DNA of 64,000 nucleotides from an uncultured Acidobacteriota bacterium. Lineage in GTDB: Bacteria > Acidobacteriota > Terriglobia > Terriglobales > Acidobacteriaceae. The translations under genes were made by a program, and so were the position numbers. Positions 17,513 through 36,201 of the stretch are shown in pieces (position 1 is the first letter of the stretch; each line of letters opens with the position of its first letter). The stretch is taken from positions 80 through 64,079 of the forward strand of contig CAWHVF010000011.1 of NCBI GenBank assembly GCA_963832785.1, given 5' to 3'. The notes below the pieces were generated by a model. It did not search any database. It was given only the letters and a program-made list of their open reading frames with translations, and was not told where the DNA came from.

Positions 17513-18307
17513 TCACCGGCTGTGCACGCGGGTGGCGTTCTCGTCTGCCAGGATGGTGCTCCAGATGCCGAACGCCGGGCGCGCCGTGGTAAACGACTGC
17601 AGGGCCGCCTTGTTGCAAATCACCAGAGTGGATCCCCTGGTTTCCACGATGTGCTGTTTTTTCAGTTCAGAGATGAGCCGGGTAACGGTTTCGCGCGAGA
17701 TGCCGATCATCTGCGCCATTTCCTCCTGGGTGAGCAGCATCTTTATGCTGGGGCGGCGATTGTCCGCAGCACTGCCGGCGTTGCTTAATTCCAGGAGCAG
17801 TTTGGCCAGCCTGTCTCCGGCCGAACGCGAAGGAGCGAGCCGGCGCAGCTCCTGGCAGGAGTCGTGGTATTTCTCGCTCAGCTTTTCGGCAATGCGCAGG
17901 GCAACTTCGTTGTGCTGCTGGAGGAAGCGCAAATATTCGTCGCGCCTGATGAAACCGATGCAGCAATGGTCGATCGCCTCGGCCGTCCACTCGTAAGGTT
18001 TGTTGCAGACGACGGCGCTCAAGCCGATAACCTCTCCGGGGTTGGCGACCCTGCGGATGAGGATTTTTCCGTTTACCGACCCCAGCGAAAGCTTCACGCG
18101 CCCCTGGCACAGAATGAAAATTCCGCGCGGCGTTTGTCCTTCGGCGAACACCACCGAGCCTTTGGGATAGATGGAGGTGGACTTGATGGCTTCCAGGCGT
18201 TGCAGGGCCGAGCAGGCCAGGTCACAGAAGCCGTTTTTCGGCTTGGCCTTGCACTCAAAACAGCTCTGGCAGATTGCCACCCCATGAGGTGAAGACATCA
18301 TAACCAT
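17513..18307 (-). CDS. Crp/Fnr-family transcriptional regulator with N-terminal cysteine cluster
   Basis: The N-terminus has CQSCFECKAKPKNGFCDLAC (five Cys). A cNMP-binding-like beta-barrel follows (GIFILCQGRVKLS), then a C-terminal HTH (QEEMAQMIGISRETVTRLISELK). Confidence 0.85.
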   Translation of the reverse strand: MVMMSSPHGVAICQSCFECKAKPKNGFCDLACSALQRLEAIKSTSIYPKGSVVFAEGQTPRGIFILCQGRVKLSLGSVNGKILIRRVANPGEVIGLSAVVCNKPYEWTAEAIDHCCIGFIRRDEYLRFLQQHNEVALRIAEKLSEKYHDSCQELRRLAPSRSAGDRLAKLLLELSNAGSAADNRRPSIKMLLTQEEMAQMIGISRETVTRLISELKKQHIVETRGSTLVICNKAALQSFTTARPAFGIWSTILADENATRVHSR

Positions 18308-20096: not shown

Positions 20097-20540
20097 GTGC
20101 CAAGTTACGTAAATCCTGAGAAATGCGATGGGTGCAAAGCGCTGGACAAGACAGCCTGCCAGTACATTTGCCCCAACGATCTCATGGTCCTTGATAAACA
20201 ATCCATGAAGGCGTACAACCGCGACGCCTCCCTCTGCTGGGAGTGCTACAACTGCGTAAAGATTTGTCCGACGCAGGCGGTAGAGGTTCGCGGCTATGCA
20301 GATTTTGTCCCACTCGGTGCTTCGGCCACGCCTCTCCGGTCCACTGATTCGATCATTTGGACGATTAAGTTCCGGAACGGAAACCTGAAGCGCTTTAAGT
20401 TTCCCATTCGCACCACGCCTGAAGGCGCGGCTGCCCCCAGCGGCGGATACCAGACGCACACCGACCTCAACAGTCCCGCGCTGTCGGCCGAACCGGAAGC
20501 CTTGGGAGTTCCCGTGTTCACCCTGAAAGGAGGCAACTAA
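20097..20540 (+). CDS. aprB: Adenylylsulfate (APS) reductase beta subunit
   Basis: MPSYVNPEKCDGCKALDKTACQYICPNDLM...CWECYNCVKICP carries two [4Fe-4S] motifs, and a typical AprB C-terminal tail follows. GTG start. Confidence 0.95.
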   Translation: MPSYVNPEKCDGCKALDKTACQYICPNDLMVLDKQSMKAYNRDASLCWECYNCVKICPTQAVEVRGYADFVPLGASATPLRSTDSIIWTIKFRNGNLKRFKFPIRTTPEGAAAPSGGYQTHTDLNSPALSAEPEALGVPVFTLKGGN

Positions 20541-22459
20541 TGCCTAATTTCGAGACTGTCACTGTCGAAACCGATCTTCTCATTCTGGGCGGCGGCATGG
20601 CGGCCTGCGGGGCGGCGGTCGAAGCGGCATACTGGGCAAAAGAAAAAGGGCTGAAGGTTACCCTTGTTGACAAGGCGGCGGTTGACCGTTCCGGCGCCGT
20701 CTCCCAGGGCCTGTCGGCCATCAACCAGTACGTCGGCCTGAAAGACGGCGCCAACACCGTGAAGGACTACGTGGATTACGTCCGCAACGACCTGATGGGC
20801 GTCACCCGCGAAGACCTGGTGGCCAACATCGCGCGTCACGTGGACTCCACCGTGCACCTGTTCGAGAAGTGGGGTCTGCCCATTTGGAAGGACGAGAAGG
20901 GCGCCTACGTTCATGAGGGCCGCTGGCAGCTCATGATCAACGGCGAGTCCTACAAGGTAATAGTGGCGGAAGCCGCCAAGAACGCCCTGCTGCAGTCGGG
21001 TGTGGGGCAGATTTTCGAGCGCGTGTTCATCACCGGCCCGCTTATGGACGGCGACCGCTGCGCCGGCGCCGTGGGCTTCTCCGTGCGTGAAAACAAGGTG
21101 TACGTGTTCAAGGCCAAAGCCACTCTGCTGACGATGGGCGGCGCCGTGCACGTGTTCAAGCCGCGGAGTTCGGGCGAGGGCTTCGGCCGCGCCTGGTATC
21201 CGCCGTTCAACACCGGCTCCTCGGCCTACTTCACCCTGAAGGCCGGGGCGGAGATGACCTGCCAGGAAGTGCGCTTCATCCCTGTCCGCTTTAAGGATGC
21301 CTACGGACCGGTAGGCGCCTGGTTCCTGCTGTTCAAATCGCGCGCCACCAACGCCATGGGCGGCAACTACATGGTGGAGCGCAAGGAAGAGCTGGAGAAG
21401 TGGGGCCCCTACGGCCGGGTGAAGCCGATTCCGGCCAACCTGCGCAACTACCTCGGCATGCTCGACGTGCAGGAGGGCAAAGGCCCGCTGTACATGCGCA
21501 CCGAGGAAGCCATGGCGGCCATCGCCGCGCAGTACAAGGACGATCCCAAGGCGTATGCGAAGAAGAAGAGGGAACTGGAATCCGAGGCGTGGGAAGACTT
21601 CCTCGACATGACGATTTCGCAGGCCATCCTGTGGGCGGCCACGAACGTTCAGCCGGAAGAGAAGTCGTCCGAAATCGCGCCCTCCGAGCCGCTCTTCATC
21701 GGTTCGCACTCCGGCGCATCCGGCGCCTGGGTTAGCGGTCCCGAGGACCTGCAGACAAGCGAGACCAAGTCCCAGTACTTCTGGGGCTACTCCAACATGT
21801 CGACGGTCAAGGGCCTGTTCTGCGCGGGCGATGCCTCCGGCGCTTCGAGCCACAAGTTCTCTTCCGGCTCGCATGCCGAAGGCCGCATCGCCGCCAAGTC
21901 CGCCATCAAGTTCGTCGTTGAAAACAACGCCGCGCCCAAGGTGGACCAGGCCGCGCTGGATGCGCAGGTCAAGGAAATGCTGAAGCCGCTGGAGACCTAC
22001 GAGCAGTTCTCCAAGGCGACCAGCGATCCCGAGGTCAATCCCAACTACATTAAGGCGCGCATGTTCATGAATCGTCTGCAGAAGATCATGGACGAGTACG
22101 CCGGCGGCGTCACCTCGCAGTTCACCACCAACAAGCCCTCGCTGGAGCGCGCGTTGGAGCTGCTGAACTTCCTCCGCGAAGACTCGGAGAAGCTGGCGGC
22201 CAAGGACCTGAACGAGTTGATGCGGTGCTGGGAAAACATCCACCGGATGTGGCAGGCCGAGTCCCACGTGCGCACGGTGCTGTTCCGTGAAGAGACGCGT
22301 TGGCCCGGCTACTACTTCCGCGCCGATACGCCGAAGATCGACGAAGAAAAGTGGCACGTCTTCGCCAACTGCCGGCGCGACCCGAAGACCGGAGCCTGGG
22401 AACTTATCAAGCGGCCCATCCTCGCTGTCTTCAGCCAGAGCCAGAAGGCTGGCGCTTAG
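20540..22459 (+). CDS. aprA: Adenylylsulfate (APS) reductase alpha subunit (FAD)
   Basis: 639 aa with an N-terminal FAD fold (DLLILGGGMAACGAAVEA). Its start overlaps the aprB stop. The sequence has AprA character throughout. Confidence 0.95.
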   Translation: MPNFETVTVETDLLILGGGMAACGAAVEAAYWAKEKGLKVTLVDKAAVDRSGAVSQGLSAINQYVGLKDGANTVKDYVDYVRNDLMGVTREDLVANIARHVDSTVHLFEKWGLPIWKDEKGAYVHEGRWQLMINGESYKVIVAEAAKNALLQSGVGQIFERVFITGPLMDGDRCAGAVGFSVRENKVYVFKAKATLLTMGGAVHVFKPRSSGEGFGRAWYPPFNTGSSAYFTLKAGAEMTCQEVRFIPVRFKDAYGPVGAWFLLFKSRATNAMGGNYMVERKEELEKWGPYGRVKPIPANLRNYLGMLDVQEGKGPLYMRTEEAMAAIAAQYKDDPKAYAKKKRELESEAWEDFLDMTISQAILWAATNVQPEEKSSEIAPSEPLFIGSHSGASGAWVSGPEDLQTSETKSQYFWGYSNMSTVKGLFCAGDASGASSHKFSSGSHAEGRIAAKSAIKFVVENNAAPKVDQAALDAQVKEMLKPLETYEQFSKATSDPEVNPNYIKARMFMNRLQKIMDEYAGGVTSQFTTNKPSLERALELLNFLREDSEKLAAKDLNELMRCWENIHRMWQAESHVRTVLFREETRWPGYYFRADTPKIDEEKWHVFANCRRDPKTGAWELIKRPILAVFSQSQKAGA

Positions 22460-22521
22460 CAACTGACCGGGGCGGGGGCTGGCTGCCCCGCCCCGCTATT
22501 TTCGTTTGCCATAGAGGTTCC

Positions 22522-22869
22522 TTGAACGATCTAAGCAAAACACGTTGTCCACATTGTGGCGAGCCCTTGCAGAGGTGGAGCACCCCCCAGCTTGGCTCAT
22601 GGAGCAGCGAGTATCAGTGCGTCTGCTTCAACGACGAATGCCCTTATTTCGTGAGCGGCTGGAGATGGATGCTGGAGCAATACAATGTGACAGCCTCCTA
22701 CCGGTATCGATTCGATCCAGCCACGGGAGAAAGCGGTCCGCTTCCGGTGTGGTCCAAGCAGGCGCTGCGCGCCAACATTATCGAATCCGAGGTTGGAGGT
22801 CCAAGTCATGACCGAAGTCGAGTCGCTGGCACCCGAATTTCTGAAGAGCACGTCCCATCTGGGTCCTGA
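22522..22869 (+). CDS. Small zinc-ribbon-like Cys-rich protein of unknown function
   Basis: Likely TTG start at 22522 after AGAGG; the upstream part of ORF 22300-22869 overlaps aprA and is not credible. Sequence: LNDLSKTRCPHCGEPLQRW...EYQCVCFNDECPYFVSGWRWMLEQYNV. The 3' 62 nt overlap the next gene, so the true stop is uncertain. Confidence 0.55.
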   Translation: MNDLSKTRCPHCGEPLQRWSTPQLGSWSSEYQCVCFNDECPYFVSGWRWMLEQYNVTASYRYRFDPATGESGPLPVWSKQALRANIIESEVGGPSHDRSRVAGTRISEEHVPSGS

Positions 22870-23638
22870 CGACCGCTTTACGTTCGCTTGCGATCCCGCT
22901 CTGGATTGCTTCGGCAAGTGCTGTCACGATGTCTCCATCGCGCTGACCCCTTACGACGTCCTGCGCATGAAAAATGCGGTCGGGGCTGATTCCTCCGCTT
23001 TCCTGGACCGGCATACCTCGGTCGCCTACTCCACCGAGACCCGAGTGCCGGTGGTGTTCCTCAAGATGGAAGACGGCAGCAAGAAGTGTTCCCTGTTGGG
23101 CGAGCATGGTTGCCAGGTCTACGCGCACCGGCCCTGGGCCTGCCGCATGTATCCGCTGGGAATGGCCGAACCGGCCGACCCGCGCCAGTCGGCGCAAAGA
23201 TTTTACTTTGTGGTTAAAGAAGAGCTGTGTCACGGTCACGGCAAGGGCGGCGAATGCGCCGTGCGGGAGTTCATTCAGAGCCAGGGGATCGAGCCCTACG
23301 ACCTGATGCAGACCTCGTTTCGCAAGCTGCTGATGCTGGCGGCGGAGCGCAAGGAGCCGCTGAGCGACGATCAAGCCGCCATGTACTTCATGGCGCTTTA
23401 CGATCTGGACCGCTTCCGGCGCTTCGTCTTCGAGACGCGCTTCCTGGAGCTGTTCGATATCGACGAGTCGGTCGTGGAAGAGGTCCGCAGCAACGACGAA
23501 GAGCTGCTGGAGCTGGCAATCAAATGGCTGGCCTTCAGTTTGTTCCGCCAGCGTTCCATGAAACTGAGCAAGCAAGCGGCCCAGCAGCAGCCAGGCGACG
23601 TCCCCGCGCAGGGCCCGGCCGGAGCCTCGGCGAGCTAA
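22808..23638 (+). CDS. YkgJ/UPF0153-type cysteine-cluster (putative Fe-S or Zn) protein
   Basis: FACDPALDCFGKCCHD (C-x-C-x3-CC pattern) plus CSLLGEHGCQVYAHRPWACRMYP, typical of the CxxCxxCC family. GGAGGT SD lies before ATG at 22808. Its stop is 6 nt before qmoA. Confidence 0.7.
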   Translation: MTEVESLAPEFLKSTSHLGPDDRFTFACDPALDCFGKCCHDVSIALTPYDVLRMKNAVGADSSAFLDRHTSVAYSTETRVPVVFLKMEDGSKKCSLLGEHGCQVYAHRPWACRMYPLGMAEPADPRQSAQRFYFVVKEELCHGHGKGGECAVREFIQSQGIEPYDLMQTSFRKLLMLAAERKEPLSDDQAAMYFMALYDLDRFRRFVFETRFLELFDIDESVVEEVRSNDEELLELAIKWLAFSLFRQRSMKLSKQAAQQQPGDVPAQGPAGASAS

Positions 23639-23644
23639 AGGATT

Positions 23645-24955
23645 ATGTCAAATACTCAACCGGAAAACGGAAATCGCAAAGCATTGCTGGTGATCGGCGG
23701 AGGCATTGCCGGAATGACGGCGGCCATCGAGGCTGCCGAGGCGGGGCTCGCCGTCGTCCTGATCGAGAAGTCGACTTATCTGGGCGGCCAGGTGGCCCGG
23801 CTTCATCACTATTTCCCCAAGCTCTGCCCGCCGGCTTGCGGCCTGGAGATCAACTTCAAGCGCCTGCGCGGTAACCCGCGAATCACCGTACTGACGCTGG
23901 CCGAACTGCAAAAGCTGGAGGGGGCGCCGGGGAATTATCAGGCGACGGTGAAGATCGCGCCCCGCTTTGTGACCGCGGCATGCACCTCGTGCGGCGACTG
24001 CTCGGCGGCGTGCCCGGCGGAGCTGGCCGATCCCTTCGACTTCGGACTGGCCAAGATCAAGGCGGCGCATACGCGGCGGCTGTCGGCCTATCCGGCAACC
24101 TATGTCATAGAGCGCTCGGCCTGCGCCGTGGAGTGCAGCGCCTGCGTCACAGCCTGCAAGTACGGAGCCATCGATCTCACGCAGACAACCAGCTTCCAGA
24201 CATTTAATGTCGGGTCGGTGCTGGTGGCGACCGGATGGCAGCCGTACGACGCCACCAAGCTGGACAACCTCGGCTTCGGCAAGCACGCCAACGTGGTCAC
24301 CAACCTCATGTTCGAGCGCCTGGCCGCCCTCGACGGCCCCAACGGCGGCAAAGTGCTGCGGCCCTCCGACGGCAAGGAGCCGAAGTCGGTGGCCTTTGTG
24401 CAGTGCGCCGGCTCGCGCGACCACAACCATCTTCCCTACTGCTCCACTGTGTGCTGCTCGGCTTCACTGAAACAAGCCAGTTACGTGCGCAGCCTTTACC
24501 CCGAGGCCAAGGTCACCATCTTTTATATAGACCTGCGCACCTCCGGGCAGTTGCAGGAGTTCGCCACCAAGGTGTGCGCGGACACTGGCATCGAGTTGGT
24601 GAAGGGCAAGGTCGGCAAGATAGAAGAGGACCCGCCAAGCAAGAACCTGCAGCTCACCGTCGAAGACGTGCTCAATAGCAAAAAGATGACACGGGACTTC
24701 GACATGGCCGTCCTGGCCACCGGCATGGTGCCGCAGACCGGCGGCCTGCCGGCCGATTGCAAGCTCGACGAGTTTGGCTTTGTGGCCGACGGCACGGCCG
24801 GGATTTTCGCCTCCGGCTGCGCCAAGCGCCCCTCCGAGGTTGCCGGCTGCGTACGCGGCGCCACTGGAGCGGCGCTGAAGGCACTACAGATCGCGGGGTC
24901 CCCCACAGACCTCGCGTCTGTTGGGGCAGGGATGGGGGCCGCGAACAATGGCTAA
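23645..24955 (+). CDS. qmoA: Quinone-interacting membrane-bound oxidoreductase subunit A (HdrA-like flavoprotein)
   Basis: ALLVIGGGIAGMTAAIEAA FAD motif, HdrA-like Cys pattern (CSTVCC) and ferredoxin-like Cys motifs. It sits directly before qmoB/qmoC. Confidence 0.9.
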   Translation: MSNTQPENGNRKALLVIGGGIAGMTAAIEAAEAGLAVVLIEKSTYLGGQVARLHHYFPKLCPPACGLEINFKRLRGNPRITVLTLAELQKLEGAPGNYQATVKIAPRFVTAACTSCGDCSAACPAELADPFDFGLAKIKAAHTRRLSAYPATYVIERSACAVECSACVTACKYGAIDLTQTTSFQTFNVGSVLVATGWQPYDATKLDNLGFGKHANVVTNLMFERLAALDGPNGGKVLRPSDGKEPKSVAFVQCAGSRDHNHLPYCSTVCCSASLKQASYVRSLYPEAKVTIFYIDLRTSGQLQEFATKVCADTGIELVKGKVGKIEEDPPSKNLQLTVEDVLNSKKMTRDFDMAVLATGMVPQTGGLPADCKLDEFGFVADGTAGIFASGCAKRPSEVAGCVRGATGAALKALQIAGSPTDLASVGAGMGAANNG

Positions 24956-27200
24956 GAAAGTGGGGGTTTATATCTGCAGCGGTTGCTCCATTGGCGATGC
25001 CATGGATGTCGAAAAACTGGCCAAGCTGGCCCAGTCGGAGTGCAAAGCGGCCTCTGTCCACTGTCACTCGTTCCTGTGCGGTGACGAGGGCAAGGGCCTT
25101 ATTCGCGCCGATTTGACAAGCCGAACGGTCGATGCGGCCGTGATCGCCGCCTGCTCGCAGCGCGCCATGACCGCCAGCTTCGGCTTCGATCCTCCGGCCA
25201 TCGTCGAGCGCGTGAACTTGCGCGAGCAGGTTGCCTGGTCGCACGAAGCGCAGAACGAGGATTCGCAGGCGCTGGCCGAAGATTTGCTCCGCATGGGCAT
25301 CGTCAAGGCCGAGAAATCGGAGCCCCTGGAGCCGCTGGCGGAAGCCATCTCGCGTACCGTGCTGGTGGTCGGTGGCGGCGTGGCCGGCCTGAGCGCGGGA
25401 CTGGCGGCGGCCGAGGCAGGCTACGAGGTCGTGCTTGTCGAAAAGCAGGCGCGGCTCGGCGGCTTCCTGGGTGGGATGAAAAAGAGCTTTCCCACCACGG
25501 CTCCTTACACCGAAGCCTCTTCCGATGGAATAGCGGCCAAGGCCAGCGCGGCGGCTTCGCATCCGCGCATGAAGGTCTTCTGCTCGAGCCGGATCGTGAA
25601 GACCGAGGGCCAGCCGGGGATGTTCGACGTGACCCTGGAAACGCCGTCGGGAGCGTCGACGCTGCGGGTGGGCTCCATCATCCTGGCGAGCGGATGGAAG
25701 CCGTACGATGCCGCCAAGCTGGCGCCATTGGGCTACGGCCTTCCCAACGTGATCACCAACGTCGAATTCGAACAGATGGCCGCCGGCAAAGGCATTGCCC
25801 GGCCATCGGACGGCCAGCCGGTCAAGCGCGCACTGTTCGTGCAGTGCGCCGGTTCGCGCCAGGCGGAACACCTGTCCTATTGCTCTTCGGTCTGCTGCAT
25901 GACCACCCTCAAGCAAATGGAGGAGATCCGCGAGCAGAATCCGCAGGCGGAAATTTTCGTGGTCTACCGGGACATGATCACCCCGGGACCGTACGAGAAG
26001 TATTACCAGAAGCTGCAGGAGCAGCCGCTGAACTTCTTCATGAAGGGCAAGGTGACCGGAGTCGCCCCGGCGGCGGACGGGCGCGTGCAGGTGAGCCTCG
26101 ACAGCGAATTGCTGGGAGCGCCGATGCAGGCCGAAGTCGACCTGGTGGTGCTGGCCAGCGGCATGGTTCCCAATTCCGCCGACGGCCCGGCCATTCGCAC
26201 CTTGCGCGATGCCACGGCCAAGCTGGCGCGCAACGAGTCGGAAAGCCAGCGGCAGGAGGCGGAGAAGACCATCGAGCAATTCAAGCGCTATGAAGGAACG
26301 GAGATTCTCAACCTCACCTACCGCCAGGGGCCGGACCTGCCGGTGCTGCAGGACGGGTTTTCGGATTCGAAGTTCATCTGCTTCCCGTACGAAAGCCTGC
26401 GCACGGGCATCTACGCCGCCGGCACGGTGCGCGCGCCCATGGACGCCGCGCTGGCCGAGGAAGACGGCCTGGGAGCGGCGCTGAAGGCGATTCAGAGCAT
26501 CGAGCTGGCTTGCCAAGGCCAGGCCGTACATCCGCGCGCCGGCGATCTTTCCTATCCCAGCTTCTTCCTGCAGCGCTGCACGCAGTGCAAACGCTGCACC
26601 GAGGAATGCCCCTTCGGCTCCCTGGATGAAGACGAGAAGGGCACGCCGAAGTTCAACCCGTACCGCTGCCGCCGCTGCGGCATCTGCATGGGGGCCTGCC
26701 CGGAGAGGATCGTCTCCTTCAAGAATTACTCGGTGGACATGATCGCGGGCATGATCAAGGCCATCGAGGTGCCGGAGGAGTTCGAGGAGAAGCCGCGCGT
26801 GCTGGTGCTGGCCTGCGAGAACGACGCCTATCCGGCGCTCGACCTGGCGGGGCAGAACCGGCGGAAATACGATCCCTGCGTGCGCATAATCCCGCTGCGC
26901 TGCCTGGGCTCCATGAACATTGTGTGGATTGCCGACGCCTTGTCGCGCGGCATCGACGGCGTGCTGCTGCTGGGCTGCAAGTTTGGCGACGATTATCAGT
27001 GCCACTTCATGCGCGGCAGCGAACTGGCCAACCGGCGCCTGGAAAACGTGAAGGAAACCCTGGAGCGGCTGCGACTGGAATCGGAGCGCATCGCCCTGGT
27101 GCAGCTCGGCATGGACGAGTACCGCCGGCTGCCGGAGGTGATCGATCAATTCGTCGCCCGCGTCCGCGAACTGGGCCCGAACCCTTACAAGGGATTTTAG
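24948..27200 (+). CDS. qmoB: Qmo subunit B (HdrA-like flavoprotein with 2x[4Fe-4S] and MvhD-like C-terminal domain)
   Basis: MAKKVGVYICSGCSIG, VLVVGGGVAGLSAGLAAA, CTQCKRCTEECP and CRRCGICMGACP. The C-terminus (VLVLACENDAYPALD...IPLRCLGSMN...LLLGCKFGDDYQCHF) is MvhD-like. It overlaps the qmoA stop by 8 nt. Confidence 0.9.
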   Translation: MAKKVGVYICSGCSIGDAMDVEKLAKLAQSECKAASVHCHSFLCGDEGKGLIRADLTSRTVDAAVIAACSQRAMTASFGFDPPAIVERVNLREQVAWSHEAQNEDSQALAEDLLRMGIVKAEKSEPLEPLAEAISRTVLVVGGGVAGLSAGLAAAEAGYEVVLVEKQARLGGFLGGMKKSFPTTAPYTEASSDGIAAKASAAASHPRMKVFCSSRIVKTEGQPGMFDVTLETPSGASTLRVGSIILASGWKPYDAAKLAPLGYGLPNVITNVEFEQMAAGKGIARPSDGQPVKRALFVQCAGSRQAEHLSYCSSVCCMTTLKQMEEIREQNPQAEIFVVYRDMITPGPYEKYYQKLQEQPLNFFMKGKVTGVAPAADGRVQVSLDSELLGAPMQAEVDLVVLASGMVPNSADGPAIRTLRDATAKLARNESESQRQEAEKTIEQFKRYEGTEILNLTYRQGPDLPVLQDGFSDSKFICFPYESLRTGIYAAGTVRAPMDAALAEEDGLGAALKAIQSIELACQGQAVHPRAGDLSYPSFFLQRCTQCKRCTEECPFGSLDEDEKGTPKFNPYRCRRCGICMGACPERIVSFKNYSVDMIAGMIKAIEVPEEFEEKPRVLVLACENDAYPALDLAGQNRRKYDPCVRIIPLRCLGSMNIVWIADALSRGIDGVLLLGCKFGDDYQCHFMRGSELANRRLENVKETLERLRLESERIALVQLGMDEYRRLPEVIDQFVARVRELGPNPYKGF

Positions 27201-28382
27201 ATGGCTACACCTATTCTGATCGAACCCGACCGCGGACTGATCCGCGACGTCATGGAGGCCGGCGGAGCAGACGTCAAGAAATGCTTCCAGTGCGCCACCT
27301 GCACCTCGGTCTGTTCGCTCTCCACCGCCGATCACGCCTTCCCGCGCAAGCAGATGCTGATGGCCCAGTGGGGACTGAAGGAGCAGCTGACCGGAGATCC
27401 CGGGCCGTGGCTGTGCTTCTACTGCGGCGAGTGCTCCAAGACCTGCCCGCGCGAAGCCAACCCCGGCGAGACCATGATGGCTATCCGCCGCTACCTCACC
27501 GCCTGCTACGACTGGACAGGGCTGTCGCGGCTCATGTATCGCTCGGCGATTTGGGAGATCGGAGTGTTGGCGGTGGCGGCGGCCATAGTGGTGCTGTTCT
27601 TTACGGTGCCGGCCAACTTCGGGTTCGGGCTGCTGCGCCAGTCGCCGGTGGCCCTGTCGACGGTCATGCTGGACCAGTTTGCGCCCAAGCTGGTCGTGCA
27701 CCACGCCGACCAAGTGCTGGCCGTGCTGCTTAGCATTTGCCTGTTGCTAAACGCCGGGCGCATGTTCAGGGCGCTGACCCGCGGCGACAACATTCCGCTG
27801 CGTTTTTACCTGGCGCAAATCCCGGCCGTGATTGTCGAGGCGGTGACGCAGAAGCGCTGGCGAAACTGCGGCGGAGACGGCAGCCAGAACTGGCTGCGCC
27901 ACTTCCTCCTGGTTACCGGCTACGCCACCATATTTGGACTGGTGCTGCTGTTCCTGCCCTGGTTCCAGATTGAAGACAGCAGCTTTCACTGGACGAGCAT
28001 ACCGGGCTACTACTCGACGGTGGTTCTGCTGGGTACCACGGTATGGATCATTCTGGACCGGGTCAACCGCAAAACGGAAATGCACCGCTTCAGCGAGCTT
28101 TCCGACTGGCTGTTCCCGATCCTGCTGTTTCTTACCGGCCTGACCGGAATTTTGCTGCATCTGTTCCGGCTGTTGAACCAGCCGATGCCCACTTACGTCA
28201 CTTACACGGTACACCTGGCGGTGGCAGTGCCCATGCTGGTGGTGGAAGTGCCGTTCGGCAAGTGGGCTCACCTGCTGTACAGGCCGGTGGCGATTTATGT
28301 TGCCAGCGTAAAATCGGCGGCGCTGAAGGAGGGCTTGGTCTCCGTGGAGGCGCAGCCGGCCGGCGCTGGCGTCGGACGGTAA
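27201..28382 (+). CDS. qmoC: Qmo subunit C (HdrC-like Fe-S domain fused to HdrE/NarI-like membrane cytochrome b domain)
   Basis: CFQCATCTSVC and CFYCGECSKTCP are followed by about six hydrophobic helices. Its start is adjacent to the qmoB stop. Confidence 0.9.
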   Translation: MATPILIEPDRGLIRDVMEAGGADVKKCFQCATCTSVCSLSTADHAFPRKQMLMAQWGLKEQLTGDPGPWLCFYCGECSKTCPREANPGETMMAIRRYLTACYDWTGLSRLMYRSAIWEIGVLAVAAAIVVLFFTVPANFGFGLLRQSPVALSTVMLDQFAPKLVVHHADQVLAVLLSICLLLNAGRMFRALTRGDNIPLRFYLAQIPAVIVEAVTQKRWRNCGGDGSQNWLRHFLLVTGYATIFGLVLLFLPWFQIEDSSFHWTSIPGYYSTVVLLGTTVWIILDRVNRKTEMHRFSELSDWLFPILLFLTGLTGILLHLFRLLNQPMPTYVTYTVHLAVAVPMLVVEVPFGKWAHLLYRPVAIYVASVKSAALKEGLVSVEAQPAGAGVGR

Positions 28383-28460
28383 TTTGCAAGGCCGGTGCGG
28401 TTCAAACCGGTGATGTAGGGCTTGGCGAAGTTGGAATTACGTTTATATCAAGGAGAATTT

Positions 28461-29720
28461 ATGAGTAAGCTCGTCCCACCGCATGGTAGTTCAGAGTTGA
28501 ACCCCCTGCTGCTTGAAGGTCAGGCGCGGAGCGAGGAAGTCAAGCGCGCGCAGGGCCTGAAGAAGGTCATGATCACCAGCCGTGAAAGTGGCGACCTGAT
28601 GATGATGGGCATCGGCGCTTTCACCCCGCTTGACGGCTTTATGGGCAGGCAAGACTGGCTGAGCGTGTGCGACAACTACACCATGCCCAGCAAGAAGGGC
28701 TTGTTCTGGCCCATTCCCGTTACCCTTTCGGCCAGCGAAGATGTTGCCAAATCGATTGCCATCAACCAGGAAGTGGCGCTCTGGGATACGGAGGCCAACG
28801 AACTGGTGGCGACCATGAAGGTGGCCGAGAAGTACACCATCGACAAGAAGCACGAGTGCAAGCAGGTCTTCCGCACCGACGACCCCGAGCACCCGGGCGT
28901 GCAGAAGGTCATGGAGCAGGGCCCGGTGAACCTTGCCGGACCGGTGAAGGTCGTCTCCGAGATGTTCTTCCCCAGCGAGTTCAAGGGCATCTATGAGCGT
29001 CCGGCGGAAGCCCGCAAGCAGTTCGAGGAGCGTGGCTGGAACACGGTGGCTGCCTTGCAGTTGCGCAATCCCATGCACAACTCGCATGCCTATCTGGCCT
29101 GGATCGCCATCGAGATCTGCGACGGCGTTTATGTTCACCAGTTGCTGGGCAAGCTGAAGCCCGGCGACATTCCGGCCGACGTGCGCGTGCGCGCCATCGA
29201 CGCGCTGGTCAGCAAGTACTTCCGCAAGGAGCGCGTGATCCAGGGCGGATATCCGATGGAGATGCGCTATGCCGGGCCGCGCGAGGCATTGTTGCATGCC
29301 CTGTTCAGACAGAACTACGGCTGCTCGCACCTGATCGTGGGCCGCGACCACGCCGGCGTGGGCAATTACTACGGCCCCTTCGACGCGCAGAAGATCTTCA
29401 AGGAAGTTCCGGCCGGCGCCCTGGCAATTCAGCCGCTGCCGCTGGATTGGACCTTCTACTGCTACGAGTGCGGCTCCATGGCTTCCATGAAGACCTGCCC
29501 GCACGAGAGCAAGGCGGTGATCGACGACAATGGCAACTACAAGGGCGGCGCCCGGCTGCTGCTGTCCGGCACCATGCTGCGCAAGCTGATGAGCGAGAAC
29601 AAGCCGGTTCCGGCCGAGTTCTCCAAGCCCGAAGTAATCGCTGTATTGAAGGAGTACTACGACAAACTGGAAACCAGAACGGAGGTGAAACTGCACAAAG
29701 CCGCAACAGGTGAGAAGTAG
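28461..29720 (+). CDS. sat: Sulfate adenylyltransferase (ATP sulfurylase)
   Basis: [10 protein letters not shown] and GRDHAGVG motifs. AGGAGA SD lies before ATG at 28461. Confidence 0.95.
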
Positions 29721-30126
29721 GCGCCGGCCGCGAGGCACGGACGGCGCCGGCCGCGTGCTGGCTCCGGCAAGCCCGACTCAGGCCTGCCGGGCGCTTTCAG
29801 ATCACCGGCTGCGCACGAAGGCGCGCTTCCAACCGCCGGGTAGCCCAGCAACGCCGTCGTGGCATTGCTGGGATGCCCGCCAGGAGGCCGCAACCTGAGC
29901 GTTGCGGCTCTCCGTGCGGATCAAAAAAACAGAAAGCAAAGCTGATGATGTACGTACGTCCAATCCGATCGTCGGCGAACTCCCATCTTTCATATTCTCG
30001 CTGGGGAATCTCATTTTTCATATCCATAGCTTTGGCGTCTCCGAGCGTTCGGGTTCGGGTTTATTCTCAAGACAATTTGGCTCAAGGTTCGAGGTCTTTG
30101 AGCGGGATAGCAAGGAGGAGCAGAGA

Positions 30127-30420
30127 ATGCGCAAGCTTTCTTGGAAGTTGCTCGGGATAATAACGGTGCTGCTGTTGCTTTCCGGACAGTTGTTTGCGGC
30201 CGGAGGCGGCGGCGCCGGTATCGTCATGGTTGCCGATACTCGTAAGTTCAGCGGTCTGGAAGCCTGGTGGGGCAATGTGTACAACGAAGGGCATGCAATG
30301 TTTACGCTTGTGACCTGCATTATAGTTCCCGTTTTCGGTTGCCTTTTGGGGATGCTTGCCGACTTCGTAATGGCCCGCCTGGGTATCGATCTGAAGAAAC
30401 GCGTTCTGGCCGAACACTAG
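30127..30420 (+). CDS. Small membrane protein (signal/anchor plus one C-terminal TM helix), unknown function
   Basis: MRKLSWKLLGIITVLLLLSGQLFAAGGGG...FTLVTCIIVPVFGCLLGMLADFV. AAGGAGGAG SD is present. The gene ends 40 nt before the TSUP gene. Confidence 0.6.
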   Translation: MRKLSWKLLGIITVLLLLSGQLFAAGGGGAGIVMVADTRKFSGLEAWWGNVYNEGHAMFTLVTCIIVPVFGCLLGMLADFVMARLGIDLKKRVLAEH

Positions 30421-30460
30421 GTGGCTGGAATCGGGTGTGGCGACACACCAGGAGGGAATA

Positions 30461-31537
30461 ATGGACTGGCTACATTTATTTATGCCCATTTCCGGTGTCC
30501 CGATCTTCTGGCCAGGACTAATCATATTGGGCTTCGGGGTGGGTATTATTGGCGGTTTTTTCGGCATGGCAGGGGCGTGGATGGTGACTCCCGGCCTGAA
30601 CATTTTGGGCTTTCCCATGGCCTTTGCCATTGGGACCGACGTGGCGCACATGGCGGGCAAATCGATCATCTCCACCATGCGGCACGCCAAGTTCGGCAAC
30701 GTGGATTACAAGCTCGGCTGCATCATGATCATCGGCACCGTGGGCGGATTCGAGGTCGGCGCGCGCATAATCATGTGGCTGGAGCGCATTGGCGAAATTA
30801 ACCTGGTGGTTCGTTGGCTGTACGTCGTGCTGCTGACTTGTATCGCCTGGATGGTCTTTGCCGACGTCTCCAAGCGAAAGAGAAAGGAGCGCGAAGCTCT
30901 GGCCGCCGGTCAGAAGCTGGATCCGCTGGCCACCGGCCTGGAGTGGCACAAGTGGCTGCACAAGATCAAGATTCCCCCGGTCATGGAATTCAAGACCGCG
31001 GGCATCCGCTGCTCGGCCTGGCTGCCGATTGGCATCAGCTTTCTCACCGGGGCTCTGGCAGGAATACTAGGAATCGGCGGCGGCCTGATCCGCATGCCTT
31101 CGCTGATCTACCTGGTCGGCGTTCCCACTCACATTGCCGTAGGCACGGACTTGTTTGAAGTCATAGTCTCCGGACTGTACGGAACGGCGACCTACAGTTA
31201 CAAGGGACGCGTCGAACTGCTGGCTGCTCTGATCATGCTGTGCGGCGCGGCCGTTGGGGCGCAGATCGGCACGGTGGCAACAAAGTACGTAAAAGGTTAC
31301 GGCATTCGTATCTTCTTCGGCCTGGCCGTGATCGGTTGCGAACTGTCGGTGATCATGAAGCTGCTTCCCATGTATTACCCGGCCCTGAAATCGTTCACGG
31401 ATGTGGCGGCAACTGTCTTGATCCTGGGAGTCGTGTCCGGCATTTCACTTTATATCTTCATTGCGTTCCTTAAAGGCGTAATTGAGGAACGGGCACAACT
31501 GCGCGCCAAAAAAGCCTTCGGCGCTCATGCCGACTGA
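30461..31537 (+). CDS. TSUP (TauE/SafE) family anion permease with enlarged central loop
   Basis: There are two homologous halves, each with a glycine-rich helix (GIIGGFFGMAGAWMVTP; GILGIGGGLIRMP). A charged central loop (KRKRKEREALAAGQKLD...) separates them. AGGAGG SD is present. Confidence 0.85.
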   Translation: MDWLHLFMPISGVPIFWPGLIILGFGVGIIGGFFGMAGAWMVTPGLNILGFPMAFAIGTDVAHMAGKSIISTMRHAKFGNVDYKLGCIMIIGTVGGFEVGARIIMWLERIGEINLVVRWLYVVLLTCIAWMVFADVSKRKRKEREALAAGQKLDPLATGLEWHKWLHKIKIPPVMEFKTAGIRCSAWLPIGISFLTGALAGILGIGGGLIRMPSLIYLVGVPTHIAVGTDLFEVIVSGLYGTATYSYKGRVELLAALIMLCGAAVGAQIGTVATKYVKGYGIRIFFGLAVIGCELSVIMKLLPMYYPALKSFTDVAATVLILGVVSGISLYIFIAFLKGVIEERAQLRAKKAFGAHAD

Positions 31538-35154: not shown

Positions 35155-36201
35155 ATGGCCATGTGGTTGGCGATTGCCGCCGCACTCTCGCTTGGCTTGC
35201 CCATTCTCCTGCCAGTGGCGGGAGTGTCGATCAACATGGGCCTGCTGGTCTCGGTAGGGCTGGGGATCGGATTTTTGTCCGGATTGCTGGGGGTTGGCGG
35301 CGGCTTCCTCACAACTCCCATTCTGATGATGATCGGCATCCCGCCGATTTTCGCCATATCTTCCGATACCAACGCCATCGTCGCCACCTCGGCTTCGGGC
35401 GTGGCCGCTCACTTTCGCCTCAACAATGTCGATTTCAAGATGGGCGCCTACTGCGTGCTGGGCGGCCTGGGCGGCTCGGCGATAGGCGTGCCGCTGGTCA
35501 GAATGCTGCGCAACCGGGGCGAAGCTGACTTTTTGATCAGCGTGATGTACATCGTAGTGCTGGGGGCGGTCGGCGGATTCATGGTCTACAACAGCATCCG
35601 GAGGCTGCGCAGCGGGGTGATGACGCAGGCGGTGCATAAGCCCGCTGACAACGCTTTCGGAATCTTTCTGGCGCGCCTGCCCTTGCAGACCGGCTTTCCG
35701 AGATCAGGCGTGCGGCATTCGGCGCTGCTGCCGCTGGGGCTGTGCATTATTGTCGGAATCATGACGGCGGTGATGGGTGTTGGCGGCGGATTCATCCTGG
35801 TGCCGGTCATGGTTTACCTGCTGCGCATGCCGGCGCACGTGGCCGTGGGCACCGGCCTGTTCCAGATCCTGTTTACCTGTATCGGCGTGACCGTCATGCA
35901 GGCCACCAGCAATCACAGTGTCGACATCGTGCTGGCGCTGCTGATCGCGGCCGGTTCAACCATCGGCGCGCAGCTCGGAGCCCGGGCCAGCCGCCACCTG
36001 CGGGGCGAGCAACTGCTGATCGTGCTGGGAGTTCTGGCGCTGGCCGTGTGCCTGAAGATGGTGGTCGGGCTCGTGCTGCCCCCGTCCAACCCGCTTTCGG
36101 TCACCCATCTTCATGCCCGGCTGCAAGCGGAACCCGGCACGACGCGCGCCTCGGCAGCGGCGATTTTTAGACACATAGCCGGCCGGGAAATCCGGCACTA
36201 G
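35155..36201 (+). CDS. TSUP (TauE/SafE) family permease, tandem paralogue 1
   Basis: GLLGVGGGFLTTP and MGVGGGFILVP motifs, one in each half. It is roughly four-fifths identical to the next gene by eye. There is no SD and only about 12 nt between the putative -10 and the ATG. Confidence 0.85.
   Translation: MAMWLAIAAALSLGLPILLPVAGVSINMGLLVSVGLGIGFLSGLLGVGGGFLTTPILMMIGIPPIFAISSDTNAIVATSASGVAAHFRLNNVDFKMGAYCVLGGLGGSAIGVPLVRMLRNRGEADFLISVMYIVVLGAVGGFMVYNSIRRLRSGVMTQAVHKPADNAFGIFLARLPLQTGFPRSGVRHSALLPLGLCIIVGIMTAVMGVGGGFILVPVMVYLLRMPAHVAVGTGLFQILFTCIGVTVMQATSNHSVDIVLALLIAAGSTIGAQLGARASRHLRGEQLLIVLGVLALAVCLKMVVGLVLPPSNPLSVTHLHARLQAEPGTTRASAAAIFRHIAGREIRH

Follow-up and report, generated by a model that had tools for sequence, protein, structure and literature searches.

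A conserved zinc-ribbon/YkgJ-like gene pair in the aprBA-qmoABC locus of Acidobacteriota, linked to apr/qmo genes across phyla

Two Cys-rich genes located between aprA and qmoA in an uncultured member of the Acidobacteriota encode, with high confidence, a conserved two-protein module that is functionally part of the dissimilatory APS-reductase/Qmo(Hdr) locus. The pair, consisting of a small zinc-ribbon gene (zr) and a gene for a YkgJ-like Cys-cluster protein (ykgJ), is small and highly constrained, accompanies apr/qmo(hdr) in different phyla and is induced together with these genes. Our preferred reading, to which we give a probability of roughly 40%, is a Zn/Fe-S accessory module with a post-translational action on Apr/Qmo, in which the metals, the complex, the target and the chemistry are all predicted.

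Results

Gene organization of the locus

All genes described here are on the forward strand of the window, that is, the whole stretch of 64,000 nucleotides analysed. The genes for the beta and alpha subunits of APS reductase come first, namely aprB (20097–20540; Pfam APS-reductase_C at 111 bits and Fer4 domains) and aprA (20540–22459; FAD_binding_2 and Succ_DH_flav_C), the product of the latter sharing 83–89% identity with AprA of acidobacterial MAGs. They are followed by zr (22522–22869; PF04606) and ykgJ (22808–23638; PF03692), and then by qmoA for an HdrA-like flavoprotein (23645–24955; Pfam matches and synteny), qmoB (24948–27200; FlpD, Pyr_redox_2 and Fer4, together with the translation and the gene calls in the relative L001), qmoC for a membrane Fe-S subunit (27201–28382; Fer4_8 and Fer4_17, synteny) and sat for ATP sulfurylase (28422–29720; ATP-sulfurylase at 268 bits, PUA_2). 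The qmoA product here contains a ferredoxin-type two-cluster insertion at residues ~106–176. In case of qmoB, the mechanical ORF starts at TTG 24921, while translation from the ATG at 24948 yields MAKKVGVYICSGC, the overlap with qmoA then being 8 nt, as in the relatives. The ORFs, the Pfam matches and the identified flanking genes thus bear out the claim of the first-pass annotation that two Cys-rich genes sit between aprA and qmoA, and the two details given for the second one, a stop 6 nt before the qmoA ATG and its own Shine-Dalgarno sequence GGAGGT, are both seen in the sequence. A regulator of the Crp/Fnr family, with a Cys motif at its N terminus, is encoded upstream of aprB.

The zinc-ribbon protein

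The zr ORF runs from a TTG start at 22522, preceded by GAGG, to a TGA stop ending at 22869, and its product of 115 aa contains CPHCG and CVCFNDECPYF. It matches the Pfam family Ogr_Delta (PF04606) with 37.7 bits (cut-off 26.3), residues 8–50 corresponding to positions 1–43 of the 47 in the profile, which agrees with the earlier description of a zinc-ribbon-like protein of ~115 aa. The conserved part is only ~90 aa long (22522–22791), as delimited by the PF04606 match, the alignments and the AlphaFold model. Within this core, the Cys4 pattern C9-x2-C12-x22-C35-x4-C40, of which all four Cys are conserved in the alignments, is followed by GWxWM and then by ASYRYRxDPxTGxSGPLPVWS, the invariant residues, among them the aromatic ones W19, W27, W47, Y60 and W77, being derived from the alignments. 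The AlphaFold monomer model has pLDDT >80 for residues 4–89. The proteins of this family are acidic, with a median pI of 5.5 and a net charge of about −2 (pI 5.3 for the core in the window). Sequence search retrieved 71 homologues and profile search 2348, and the family comprises 273 clusters at 50% identity among 1.84 billion representatives. No NCBIfam family matches zr, a PDB sequence search with the family profile returned noise only, and Foldseek searches with the model gave no PDB match and no viral match in BFVD at E up to 0.001; a weak match annotated as 'transcriptional regulator' was found in PHROG (E 0.006). Fusions of the zr domain with class-I SAM methyltransferase domains occur in eight distinct clusters at 50% identity, with either domain coming first. 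Since HEAT/zinc-ribbon and lipocalin-like domains are further fusion partners, the link to methyltransferases is not exclusive. We conclude with high confidence that in zr a Cys4 finger precedes a helix and a beta-hairpin and that the protein behaves like a modular adaptor domain, its metal being a predicted one.

The YkgJ-like protein

The second ORF, from ATG 22808 to TAA 23638, encodes 276 aa, including CDPALDCFGKCC and GCQVYAHRPWACRMYP. It had been described as a YkgJ/UPF0153-type protein, and the profile search suggested at that time is positive, with 40.8 bits against PF03692 (cut-off 23; residues 28–118 on profile positions 2–72 of 85). There are 1422 homologues, and PF03692 was found in all but one of the 120 matches listed. 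Both this ORF and that of zr are well above what chance would produce. The N-terminal domain carries C28-x5-C34-x3-C38C39 plus C94, C102, C112, C141 and H144, and these Cys/His residues, including eight Cys, are invariant across 64–68 aligned sequences. The C-terminal domain (about residues 150–260) is helical and has no Pfam match. The AlphaFold monomer model reaches a pLDDT of 79 and a pTM of 0.76. No NCBIfam model matches the protein at E up to 1, the PDB sequence search with the family profile gave nothing, and Foldseek found no PDB match for the model at E up to 0.001. As PF03692 is the one recognisable domain, no SAM-binding domain is evident. An orthologue from Desulfobacterota shares 35% identity with the protein in the window over 235 aa (E 4e-61).

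The overlap of zr and ykgJ

In the window the two ORFs overlap by 62 nt (22808–22869) in different frames, as had been noted before. The accompanying proposal of a missed stop or an indel, and hence of one fused protein, has to be abandoned, because in each of the 80 related acidobacterial loci zr and ykgJ are distinct genes read in different frames. In close relatives zr ends with ...ACT GAA TAA; comparison at the DNA level showed that this ancestral TAA has become TCC in the window, with an adjoining 6-nt deletion, so that reading runs on to the TGA at 22867. The resulting lineage-specific C-terminal extension of 25 residues (22792–22869), which creates the 62-nt overlap, is common only to one close relative, P0121, and is predicted to be disordered (pLDDT <50). 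The Shine-Dalgarno sequence GGAGGT of ykgJ lies inside the zr frame at 22795–22800, 7 nt ahead of the ATG, and an AGGAGG-like element is present at the equivalent position in the relatives. In about 64 of the 80 loci the two genes overlap by 1–22 nt (mostly 8, 11 or 14 nt), and in the remaining 16 they are separated by 0–31 nt in all but three. Such short junctions fit coupled, stoichiometric synthesis. Thus, zr and ykgJ are separate genes with high confidence and are probably translationally coupled. That the unusually long overlap is an annotation or assembly artefact hiding an indel, the true product being a fused zinc-ribbon/YkgJ protein, is extremely improbable and effectively refuted by the frame comparison and the stop loss visible in the DNA, considering also that the relatives have a normal stop with an overlap of 8–14 nt or a short gap, that the independent assembly P0121 has the 115-aa form of zr as well, that ykgJ retains its own Shine-Dalgarno sequence and ATG, and that no zr-YkgJ fusion occurs among the long family members examined.

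Distribution and synteny across phyla

The order aprB-aprA-zr-ykgJ is found in 80 of the 80 species-representative acidobacterial loci retrieved, with qmoABC next in all but one (L033), where the pair stays beside aprBA although qmoABC is divergent. In another locus (L014) a gene for citrate synthase is inserted after aprA, and the pair remains with qmoA. The same aprBA-zr-ykgJ order occurs in a MAG of Omnitrophota and in other metagenome contigs, and in a MAG of Zixibacteria the pair follows aprA with qmoAB absent nearby. Of the 41 testable contigs of Desulfobacterota, 33 have zr behind qmoC or hdrB. There, YkgJ-like paralogs, which are encoded on the other strand, occur within 5 kb in 16 of 30 cases, about half of the contigs having none close to zr. 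Directly next to zr these contigs encode another protein, with a SEC-C motif and HExxH (63 of 65 contigs), which is not related to the YkgJ-like protein in profile comparison. In the other 8 of the 41 testable Desulfobacterota-type contigs, zr-SECC is near dnaK/hrcA, holB or transporter genes with no apr/qmo within 8 kb, and such unrelated neighbourhoods suggest that zr may have a more general role. The first-pass annotation had called for a survey of gene neighbourhoods, and linkage to apr/qmo was found in every related genome examined and across phyla. The more specific claim that the genes are encoded exactly at the aprA-qmoA junction holds in Acidobacteriota and fails in Desulfobacterota, given the position after qmoC/hdrB and the minority of contigs away from apr/qmo.

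To our knowledge, the module is absent from the textbook aprBA-qmoABC operons of Desulfovibrio, Archaeoglobus and Chlorobi. It is thus not present wherever aprBA-qmo is, as a core subunit of AprBA/QmoABC would be, and the gene order varies, with zr elsewhere in the 8 of 41 contigs mentioned. DVU0851, which follows qmoC in D. vulgaris, was considered as a relative and rejected, as it is described in the literature as specific to Desulfovibrio and without homologues outside. Mean pairwise identity is 0.65 for zr and 0.59 for the YkgJ-like protein, compared with 0.65, 0.68 and 0.46 for QmoA, QmoB and QmoC, respectively. Mirror-tree and partial-correlation analysis of 50 loci made QmoA-QmoB stand out (0.54) and singled out no partner for zr or the YkgJ-like protein; since the known partners AprA and AprB score only 0.19, this analysis is without power to name a partner.

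Expression and the aprA-zr hairpin

A GC-rich hairpin with 10 G-C pairs, an 8-nt loop and a T-rich tail (CTATTTTCGTTT) is present at 22468–22495, beginning 9 nt after the aprA stop, and ranks first among the terminator-like sites of the scan. In 65 of the 68 acidobacterial loci the aprA-zr spacer contains an uninterrupted stem of 10 bp or more, and the median folding z-score of this spacer is −4; the structure is conserved and the sequence is not. Rfam assigns no known RNA family to the hairpin and finds only one tRNA window-wide. We regard it as a terminator/attenuator-like or mRNA-stabilising element.

Expression data were taken from the supplementary data of Dyksma and Pester 2023 (PMC10564751), in which MAG CO124 corresponds to our locus L057. 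In its metatranscriptomes, zr and ykgJ are silent with oxygen and induced with aprBA/qmo under sulfate reduction: RPKM rises from 0 (oxic) to 2.0–5.4 (anoxic) for zr (padj 0.003) and from 0 to 6.6–9.0 for ykgJ (padj 6e-10), as compared with 0–4.8 and 49–66 for aprA, 0 and 0.3–1.7 for qmoA, and 0 and about 2.6 for qmoB (PMC10564751). The published RPKM falls ~7–16-fold across the aprA-zr junction (PMC10564751). Co-transcription with the apr and qmo genes, as first proposed, is therefore supported in part: the genes are co-induced, but the hairpin splits aprA from zr and the transcript level drops there. The pair is transcribed only in anoxic, sulfate-reducing conditions alongside aprBA and qmo, and the conserved hairpin probably sets its level ~7–16-fold under that of aprBA. 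As the pair is syntenic with apr/qmo and induced with them, its functional link to APS reduction, already suggested in the first-pass annotation, is credible.

Discussion

Possible roles of the pair

The reading that we consider best, with the probability stated at the outset, is the following. The YkgJ-like protein is predicted to bind an oxygen-sensitive [4Fe-4S] cluster on C-x5-C-x3-CC, by analogy to C-x4-C-x3-CC of FliB, the flagellin lysine-N-methylase of Salmonella, and a second metal site is predicted at C94/C102/C112/C141(H144). It would form a complex of about 1:1 with zr, and this complex may serve as a maturation or modification factor for the Apr/Qmo machinery, with zr providing target recognition and with FliB-like cluster-dependent methyl transfer as a possible chemistry, for which the fusions of zr to class-I SAM methyltransferases in eight clusters give indirect support. 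An obligatory electron wire and a transcription factor are both disfavoured, since the absence of the module from textbook operons and the acidic nature of zr argue against a core electron-wire or regulator role. The boldest version, a dedicated, FliB-related, O2-sensitive Fe-S system in which zr is the targeting subunit and which would place a new kind of post-translational modification on AprA, AprB or a Qmo/Hdr subunit, much like the modification enzymes encoded near mcr in methanogens, or else the missing quinol-to-APS partner, is put forward here as speculative and rather unlikely.

How electrons are supplied from Qmo to AprBA, and what else this step needs, is still debated. Docked through zr, the YkgJ-like Fe-S protein could be imagined to relay or gate electron transfer from Qmo(Hdr) to AprB or back; in these lineages the pair would then represent the missing third partner that has been postulated for the flow of electrons from quinol to APS. 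The position between aprA and qmoA with a 6-nt spacer to qmoA, the eight invariant Cys, which suffice for one or two clusters, the co-induction with apr/qmo, the fact that the pair tracks whichever Qmo/Hdr variant is present (QmoABC or QmoAB-HdrCB) and a conservation equal to that of QmoA and QmoB are all consistent with such an adaptor. Its absence from the studied operons of Desulfovibrio, Archaeoglobus and Chlorobi, however, excludes a general requirement, the pair in Zixibacteria has no qmoAB nearby, and the YkgJ-like genes of Desulfobacterota lie on the other strand, with none near zr in about half of the contigs; furthermore, repeated fusions of zr with methyltransferases would not be expected of an electron-carrier adaptor. 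We therefore hold this role to be improbable, at about the level of the boldest version above.

Unlikely as well is the explanation that zr and its Cys-rich partners are a hitch-hiking general module of anaerobe housekeeping, for example in metal handling, protein quality control or RNA/protein methylation, which tends to insert near highly regulated apr/qmo operons. The 8 of 41 contigs with zr-SECC beside dnaK/hrcA, holB or transporters, the diverse fusion partners of zr and the change of partner with phylum (YkgJ-like or SEC-C/HExxH) would all fit it. But linkage to apr/qmo recurs in four gene orders and in at least four phyla, which would hardly be expected without selection, the regulation of the pair follows that of sulfate respiration, and a family of 273 clusters at 50% identity is small, unlike a general housekeeping protein.

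The Pfam name of zr suggests that it could be an Ogr/Delta-type activator of apr/qmo with the Fe-S protein as redox or oxygen sensor, which would account for the strictly anoxic expression. The match exceeds the Pfam threshold, the spacing C-x2-C-x22-C-x4-C is that of the finger of P2 Ogr, and the weak PHROG match points the same way. Ogr/Delta activators are basic proteins acting at TGT-N12-ACA type sites of their target promoters; the acidic zr is a poor fit to DNA binding, and no such site was found ahead of aprB or zr. The match is confined to the finger, the complete zr model having no significant counterpart in BFVD or PDB, and the conservation of zr is close to that of QmoA and QmoB, also between phyla, where faster divergence would be expected of a regulator. 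In addition, the Crp/Fnr-family gene already lies upstream of aprB, and fusions to methyltransferase and HEAT-repeat domains do not point to a transcription factor. A regulatory pair is thus quite unlikely, and the post-translational accessory module remains our preferred reading.

If either form of the boldest version is true, the pair would be an accessory component of dissimilatory sulfate reduction with a wide distribution, found in Acidobacteriota, Desulfobacterota, Zixibacteria and Omnitrophota. The pair is also relevant to the extra components of newly recognised, environmentally important sulfate reducers such as the peatland Acidobacteria. In the literature searched for YkgJ, PF03692 or Ogr/Delta in connection with apr/qmo or sulfate reduction, the two genes appear in no paper's main text, and they figure in published tables only as "hyp". 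We know of almost no biochemistry behind either family, and the locus gives a first biological context both to a distinct cellular branch of the 'Ogr/Delta' finger and to one PF03692 subfamily. The 90-aa zinc protein and the 276-aa Fe-S protein, as predicted, are concrete targets whose expression is expected to be easy.

Comparison with known systems

FliB is the only biochemically characterised protein with a Cys motif of this kind; it is a SAM-dependent protein methylase with eight conserved Cys and an O2-sensitive [4Fe-4S] cluster on CX4CX3CC, a motif which its authors liken to PF03692 (PMC8598068). The YkgJ-like protein resembles FliB in the N-terminal C-xn-C-x3-CC, in the eight conserved Cys and in having no other recognisable domain, and FliB modifies another protein post-translationally, as the YkgJ-like protein may do if its putative methyltransferase role is real. 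It differs in the first spacer, which is one residue longer (CX5 versus CX4), in being shorter with a helical C-terminal domain of its own, and in the genetic context, since it has a zinc-ribbon partner in a sulfur-respiration operon and not a flagellar one. No FliB-family similarity over the full length was seen, as no NCBIfam model, that of FliB included if there is one, matches at E up to 1, and the relation consists of a similar Cys motif and membership at the Pfam level. As for E. coli YkgJ, the window protein is above the PF03692 threshold, both proteins have an N-terminal four-Cys motif, and the segment G-C-x-[IV]-Y-x2-R-x3-C-R-x-[YF] aligns with the protein in the window. However, YkgJ has 109 aa and CxxCxxCC, whereas the window protein has 276 aa, CX5CX3CC and an extra helical domain of ~110 residues, and the profile-profile match between the YkgJ-like family and E. 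coli YkgJ is limited to 18 columns.

On the side of zr, the likeness to Ogr of phage P2 and Delta of phage P4 lies in the finger, which is above the PF04606 threshold, while zr is acidic, cellular and embedded in an operon, with a unique conserved C-terminal half. The Trm112-type activators are also small zinc ribbons, separate from or fused to class-I SAM methyltransferases. This resemblance is one of architecture and a lead rather than a membership, for there is no sequence similarity to zr and no Trm112 structure among the Foldseek PDB matches, of which none reached E up to 0.001. A further parallel is DsrD of the dsr operons, which was once thought to bind DNA and has now been shown to be an allosteric activator of DsrAB (PMC8794893). 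Like zr, it is small, conserved, nominally of a 'DNA-binding' type, encoded within an operon of dissimilatory sulfur metabolism, expressed along with the enzyme and lacking in some lineages; it is a winged helix with no relation to zr in sequence or fold, and zr has a Cys-cluster partner in addition. In the same way as DsrD was reassigned, the zr/ykgJ pair could reveal a new accessory step or modification in sulfate respiration.

Organization of the apr-qmo operon

The region 20097-29720 forms a single co-directional run on the + strand, in which aprB and aprA are followed by two extra genes and then by qmoA, qmoB, qmoC and sat, and all genes flanking the extra pair were identified by Pfam. 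The first extra ORF, here named zr (TTG 22522 to TGA 22869, + strand, 115 aa, with GAGG a few bases upstream of the start), encodes a zinc-ribbon protein matching Ogr_Delta (PF04606, 37.7 bits, cut-off 26.3). The second, here named ykgJ (ATG 22808 to TAA 23638, + strand, 276 aa, with GGAGGT at 22795-22800), encodes a YkgJ-like protein, and its proposed membership of PF03692 (CxxCxxCC/YkgJ) is confirmed at 40.8 bits (cut-off 23). The two ORFs lie in different frames with an overlap of 62 nt, and 6 nt separate the ykgJ stop from the qmoA ATG. All factual statements of the first-pass annotation on both ORFs, described there as cysteine-rich genes inside the apr-qmo string, proved correct in ORF, Pfam, overlap and frame checks. 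Two mechanical starts in the operon are probably too early: TTG 24921 for qmoB (region 24921-24955), where the alternative ATG 24948 yields MAKKVGVYICSGC and an 8-nt overlap with qmoA, like that of relatives, and TTG 28422 for sat (region 28422-28460), where MSKLVPPHG starts at 28461. The - strand ORFs at 22778-23575 (265 aa) and 20537-22462 (641 aa), which shadow ykgJ and aprA, respectively, are the usual shadow ORFs of high-GC DNA and were rejected as genes.

QmoA (23645-24955) is HdrA-like through a two-cluster insertion of ferredoxin type at residues ~106-176 (Pfam Fer4_9, E 1.7e-7); classical Desulfovibrio QmoA is not known to have Fe-S sites. Among the best 80 acidobacterial loci (L006-L085) the identity of QmoC to that of the window falls into two classes, ~62-71% and ~29-36%, in operons that are otherwise syntenic; this explains the low mean identity of 0.46 and suggests that acidobacterial QmoC is of two types or that the membrane subunit was replaced. 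A - strand gene (17513-18307) that lies ~1.8 kb upstream of aprB encodes a Crp/Fnr-family protein (cNMP_binding and HTH_Crp_2) with a Cys-rich N-terminal stretch, CQSCFECKAKPKNGFCDLAC, which would be a plausible candidate for an oxygen- or redox-responsive regulator of the operon. The part of the window 3' of sat (29902-31537 and 35155-36201) has an ORF for a small membrane protein (172 aa) and two genes of the TauE/SafE sulfite-exporter family, and in the related locus L001 the post-sat gene has PF28216 (DVU0150), with TauE and DUF4881 coming next. This gene set suggests a larger conserved sulfur locus.

Distribution and synteny of the gene pair

The genome scan, with one genome per GTDB species, gave 580 loci encoding a relative, the best 80 of which were analysed; since the genome and metagenome scans each contributed their best 80 loci, the taxonomic picture is a sample. 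The best 80 of the 580 all belong to Acidobacteriota (Korobacteraceae, Bryobacteraceae, Solibacteraceae, Terriglobales and one Thermoanaerobaculia) and the published MAGs SbA3 and CO124 are among them. When the window proteins were mapped onto these loci, the order aprB-aprA-zr-ykgJ(-qmoA-qmoB-qmoC) was recovered in 80 of 80, so that the synteny in related genomes, on which the first-pass annotation had made its link to APS reduction depend, is present. In L033, qmoABC lies upstream and divergent, and zr-ykgJ remains with aprBA. Five Terriglobales/Acidobacteriaceae-type MAGs (L014, L018, L022, L023 and L025) have ~1.5 kb inserted 3' of aprA, and there zr-ykgJ remains attached to qmoA; the sole insert inspected (L014, 7116-8657) holds a citrate-synthase-like gene of 513 aa with GYGHAVLRKTDPRY. 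Moreover, the order aprBA-zr-ykgJ-qmo occurs in one Omnitrophota MAG and further metagenome contigs, and a Zixibacteria genome has sat-aprBA-zr-ykgJ, with qmoAB not found nearby.

The metagenome scan, for which the most divergent zr sequences served as seeds, gave a second, large group (L093-L172, the best 80 loci) with the names Desulfobacteraceae, Desulfatiglandaceae and "Deltaproteobacteria", in which the order is aprBA-qmoABC-zr or aprBA-qmoAB-hdrC-hdrB-zr (for example, L088, 4418-7339, and L114, 6238-9199). Genes of qmo or hdr stand directly upstream of zr in 33 of the 41 contigs with enough upstream sequence, and the next gene after zr encodes a protein of 254 aa that has an N-terminal SEC-C motif and HELAH (HExxH-like) in 63 of 65 testable contigs. 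In addition, 16 of 30 testable contigs have, no more than 5 kb from zr, one or two genes for YkgJ-like paralogs on the opposite strand; among these is an orthologue that matches the window protein in full length (35% identity over 235 aa, E 4e-61).

Two separate genes with a lost stop codon

The YkgJ-like protein has 1422 database homologues (50-80% identity among the matches listed), and zr has 71 by sequence search and 2348 by profile search. Nearly all zr homologues are 88-100 aa long, with conservation ending around residue 90, while the final 25 residues of the window protein are common only to one relative at 77% identity (P0121) and are predicted to be disordered (AlphaFold pLDDT <50). 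DNA alignment shows that zr of close relatives ends ...ACT GAA TAA, ~20 nt upstream of the next ATG, and that in the window this ancestral TAA has become TCC with an adjoining 6-nt deletion; therefore translation continues to the next stop. The junction is a short overlap in ~64 of 80 related genomes, mostly of 8, 11 or 14 nt, and a 0-31-nt gap in all but three of the remaining 16. Translationally coupled genes typically have short overlaps such as these, and the 62-nt overlap is an exaggerated form of them. The suspected fusion of the two genes through a missed stop or indel was not borne out, given the lost TAA at the DNA level and the different frames in all 80 genomes.

Hairpin and expression

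Nine bases 3' of the aprA stop lies a hairpin (22468-22495) of 10 G-C pairs with a T-rich tail. Of 68 acidobacterial loci, 65 have a stem of at least 10 uninterrupted pairs in the spacer between aprA and zr, where the median folding z-score by mononucleotide shuffles is about -4, and the hairpin is conserved in structure, because the stem is kept while the sequences differ; it matched no Rfam family. In the metatranscriptome of MAG CO124, both genes are listed as "hyp" in the sulfate-reduction table (Dyksma and Pester 2023, PMC10564751). According to its supplementary data they are silent under oxic conditions, and under anoxic conditions the RPKM values are 6.6-9.0 for ykgJ, 2.0-5.4 for zr, about 50-66 for aprA and aprB, 0.3-1.7 for qmoA and about 2.6 for qmoB. 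These data show transcription of the pair and its co-regulation with the pathway. Of the co-transcription with apr and qmo expected in the first-pass annotation, the co-regulation thus stands, but the level of the pair is ~7-16-fold below aprBA (somewhat above qmoAB), and the drop coincides with the hairpin, which fits attenuated read-through or differential mRNA stability.

Protein features and possible function

The zr protein has a Cys4 site (C9-x2-C12-x22-C35-x4-C40), followed by GWxWM, a helix and a beta-hairpin bearing ASYRYRxDPxTGxSGPLPVWS, and 15 to 22 positions are invariant across phyla in the alignments. Its AlphaFold model is confident over residues 4-89 and resembled nothing in PDB or BFVD at E up to 0.001. 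The family is small (273 clusters at 50% identity, E up to 0.001, among 1.84 billion representatives in an exhaustive profile search). Eight clusters among its longer members are fusions with a class-I SAM methyltransferase domain (P0449, P0459, P0485, P0530, P0509, P0533, P0446 and P0458), in which the zr domain keeps its hallmarks and is C-terminal in seven and N-terminal in one. Other fusions add HEAT repeats and a zinc ribbon (P0467, P0488, P0499 and P0548; zinc ribbon only in P0434), a lipocalin-like domain (P0484) or a HisKA fragment (P0440). Being repeatedly coupled to enzymes, most often methyltransferases, zr appears as a modular adaptor. The YkgJ-like protein has C28-x5-C34-x3-C38C39, C94, C102, C112, C141 and H144, which are fully or almost fully conserved across 64-68 sequences, and its Cys-rich N-terminal domain precedes a helical domain at ~150-260 that is predicted well (pLDDT 79, pTM 0.76). 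No relative was found in PDB by sequence or fold, and no family in NCBIfam. Among proteins with a Cys motif of this kind, FliB alone has been studied biochemically: its CX4CX3CC binds a [4Fe-4S] cluster that is sensitive to oxygen, eight of its cysteines are conserved, and it requires the cluster for SAM-dependent flagellin methylation; its authors compare the motif to PF03692 (PMC8598068).

We conclude with high confidence that the apr/qmo(hdr) locus has in this pair a conserved accessory module, in which a zinc-ribbon adaptor is combined with a probable Fe-S protein and the synthesis of the two is coupled. As to its function, we tentatively assume, with a probability of about 0.4, that the pair acts post-translationally on the Apr/Qmo machinery in maturation or modification, where the chemistry might be FliB-like and zr would recognize the target. 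This is preferred to an obligatory electron relay, which is unlikely because the module is, to our knowledge, absent from the classical operons of Desulfovibrio, Archaeoglobus and Chlorobium as established descriptions give them, its position and partner vary, and the fusion partners of zr are enzymes and not redox carriers. A general housekeeping role, with the pair hitch-hiking near apr/qmo, is kept alive by eight contigs in which zr and the SEC-C gene lie amid unrelated genes, and is slightly less likely still. A regulatory role is the most doubtful, because the zr family is acidic (median pI 5.5; the comparison used an approximate Ogr sequence), no Ogr-type site occurs in the sequence upstream of either aprB or zr, the conservation of zr is roughly that of QmoA and QmoB, its model gave no fold match to Ogr/Delta proteins, and the region upstream of aprB already encodes a Crp/Fnr regulator.

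Comparison with known systems

By the locus tags of Hausmann et al. (2018, PMC6018796), two or three genes separate aprA from qmoA in acidobacterial sulfur loci. No paper discussing the pair was found in the literature searched, within which its cross-phylum conservation, the Desulfobacterota arrangement with zr after qmoC or hdrB, and the zr-methyltransferase fusions appear to be undescribed. The finding is an apr-qmo operon with a conserved two-gene accessory module drawn from known, uncharacterised domain families; with E. coli YkgJ, the YkgJ-like protein has in common the four-Cys motif and the GCxVYxxRxxxCRxY segment only.
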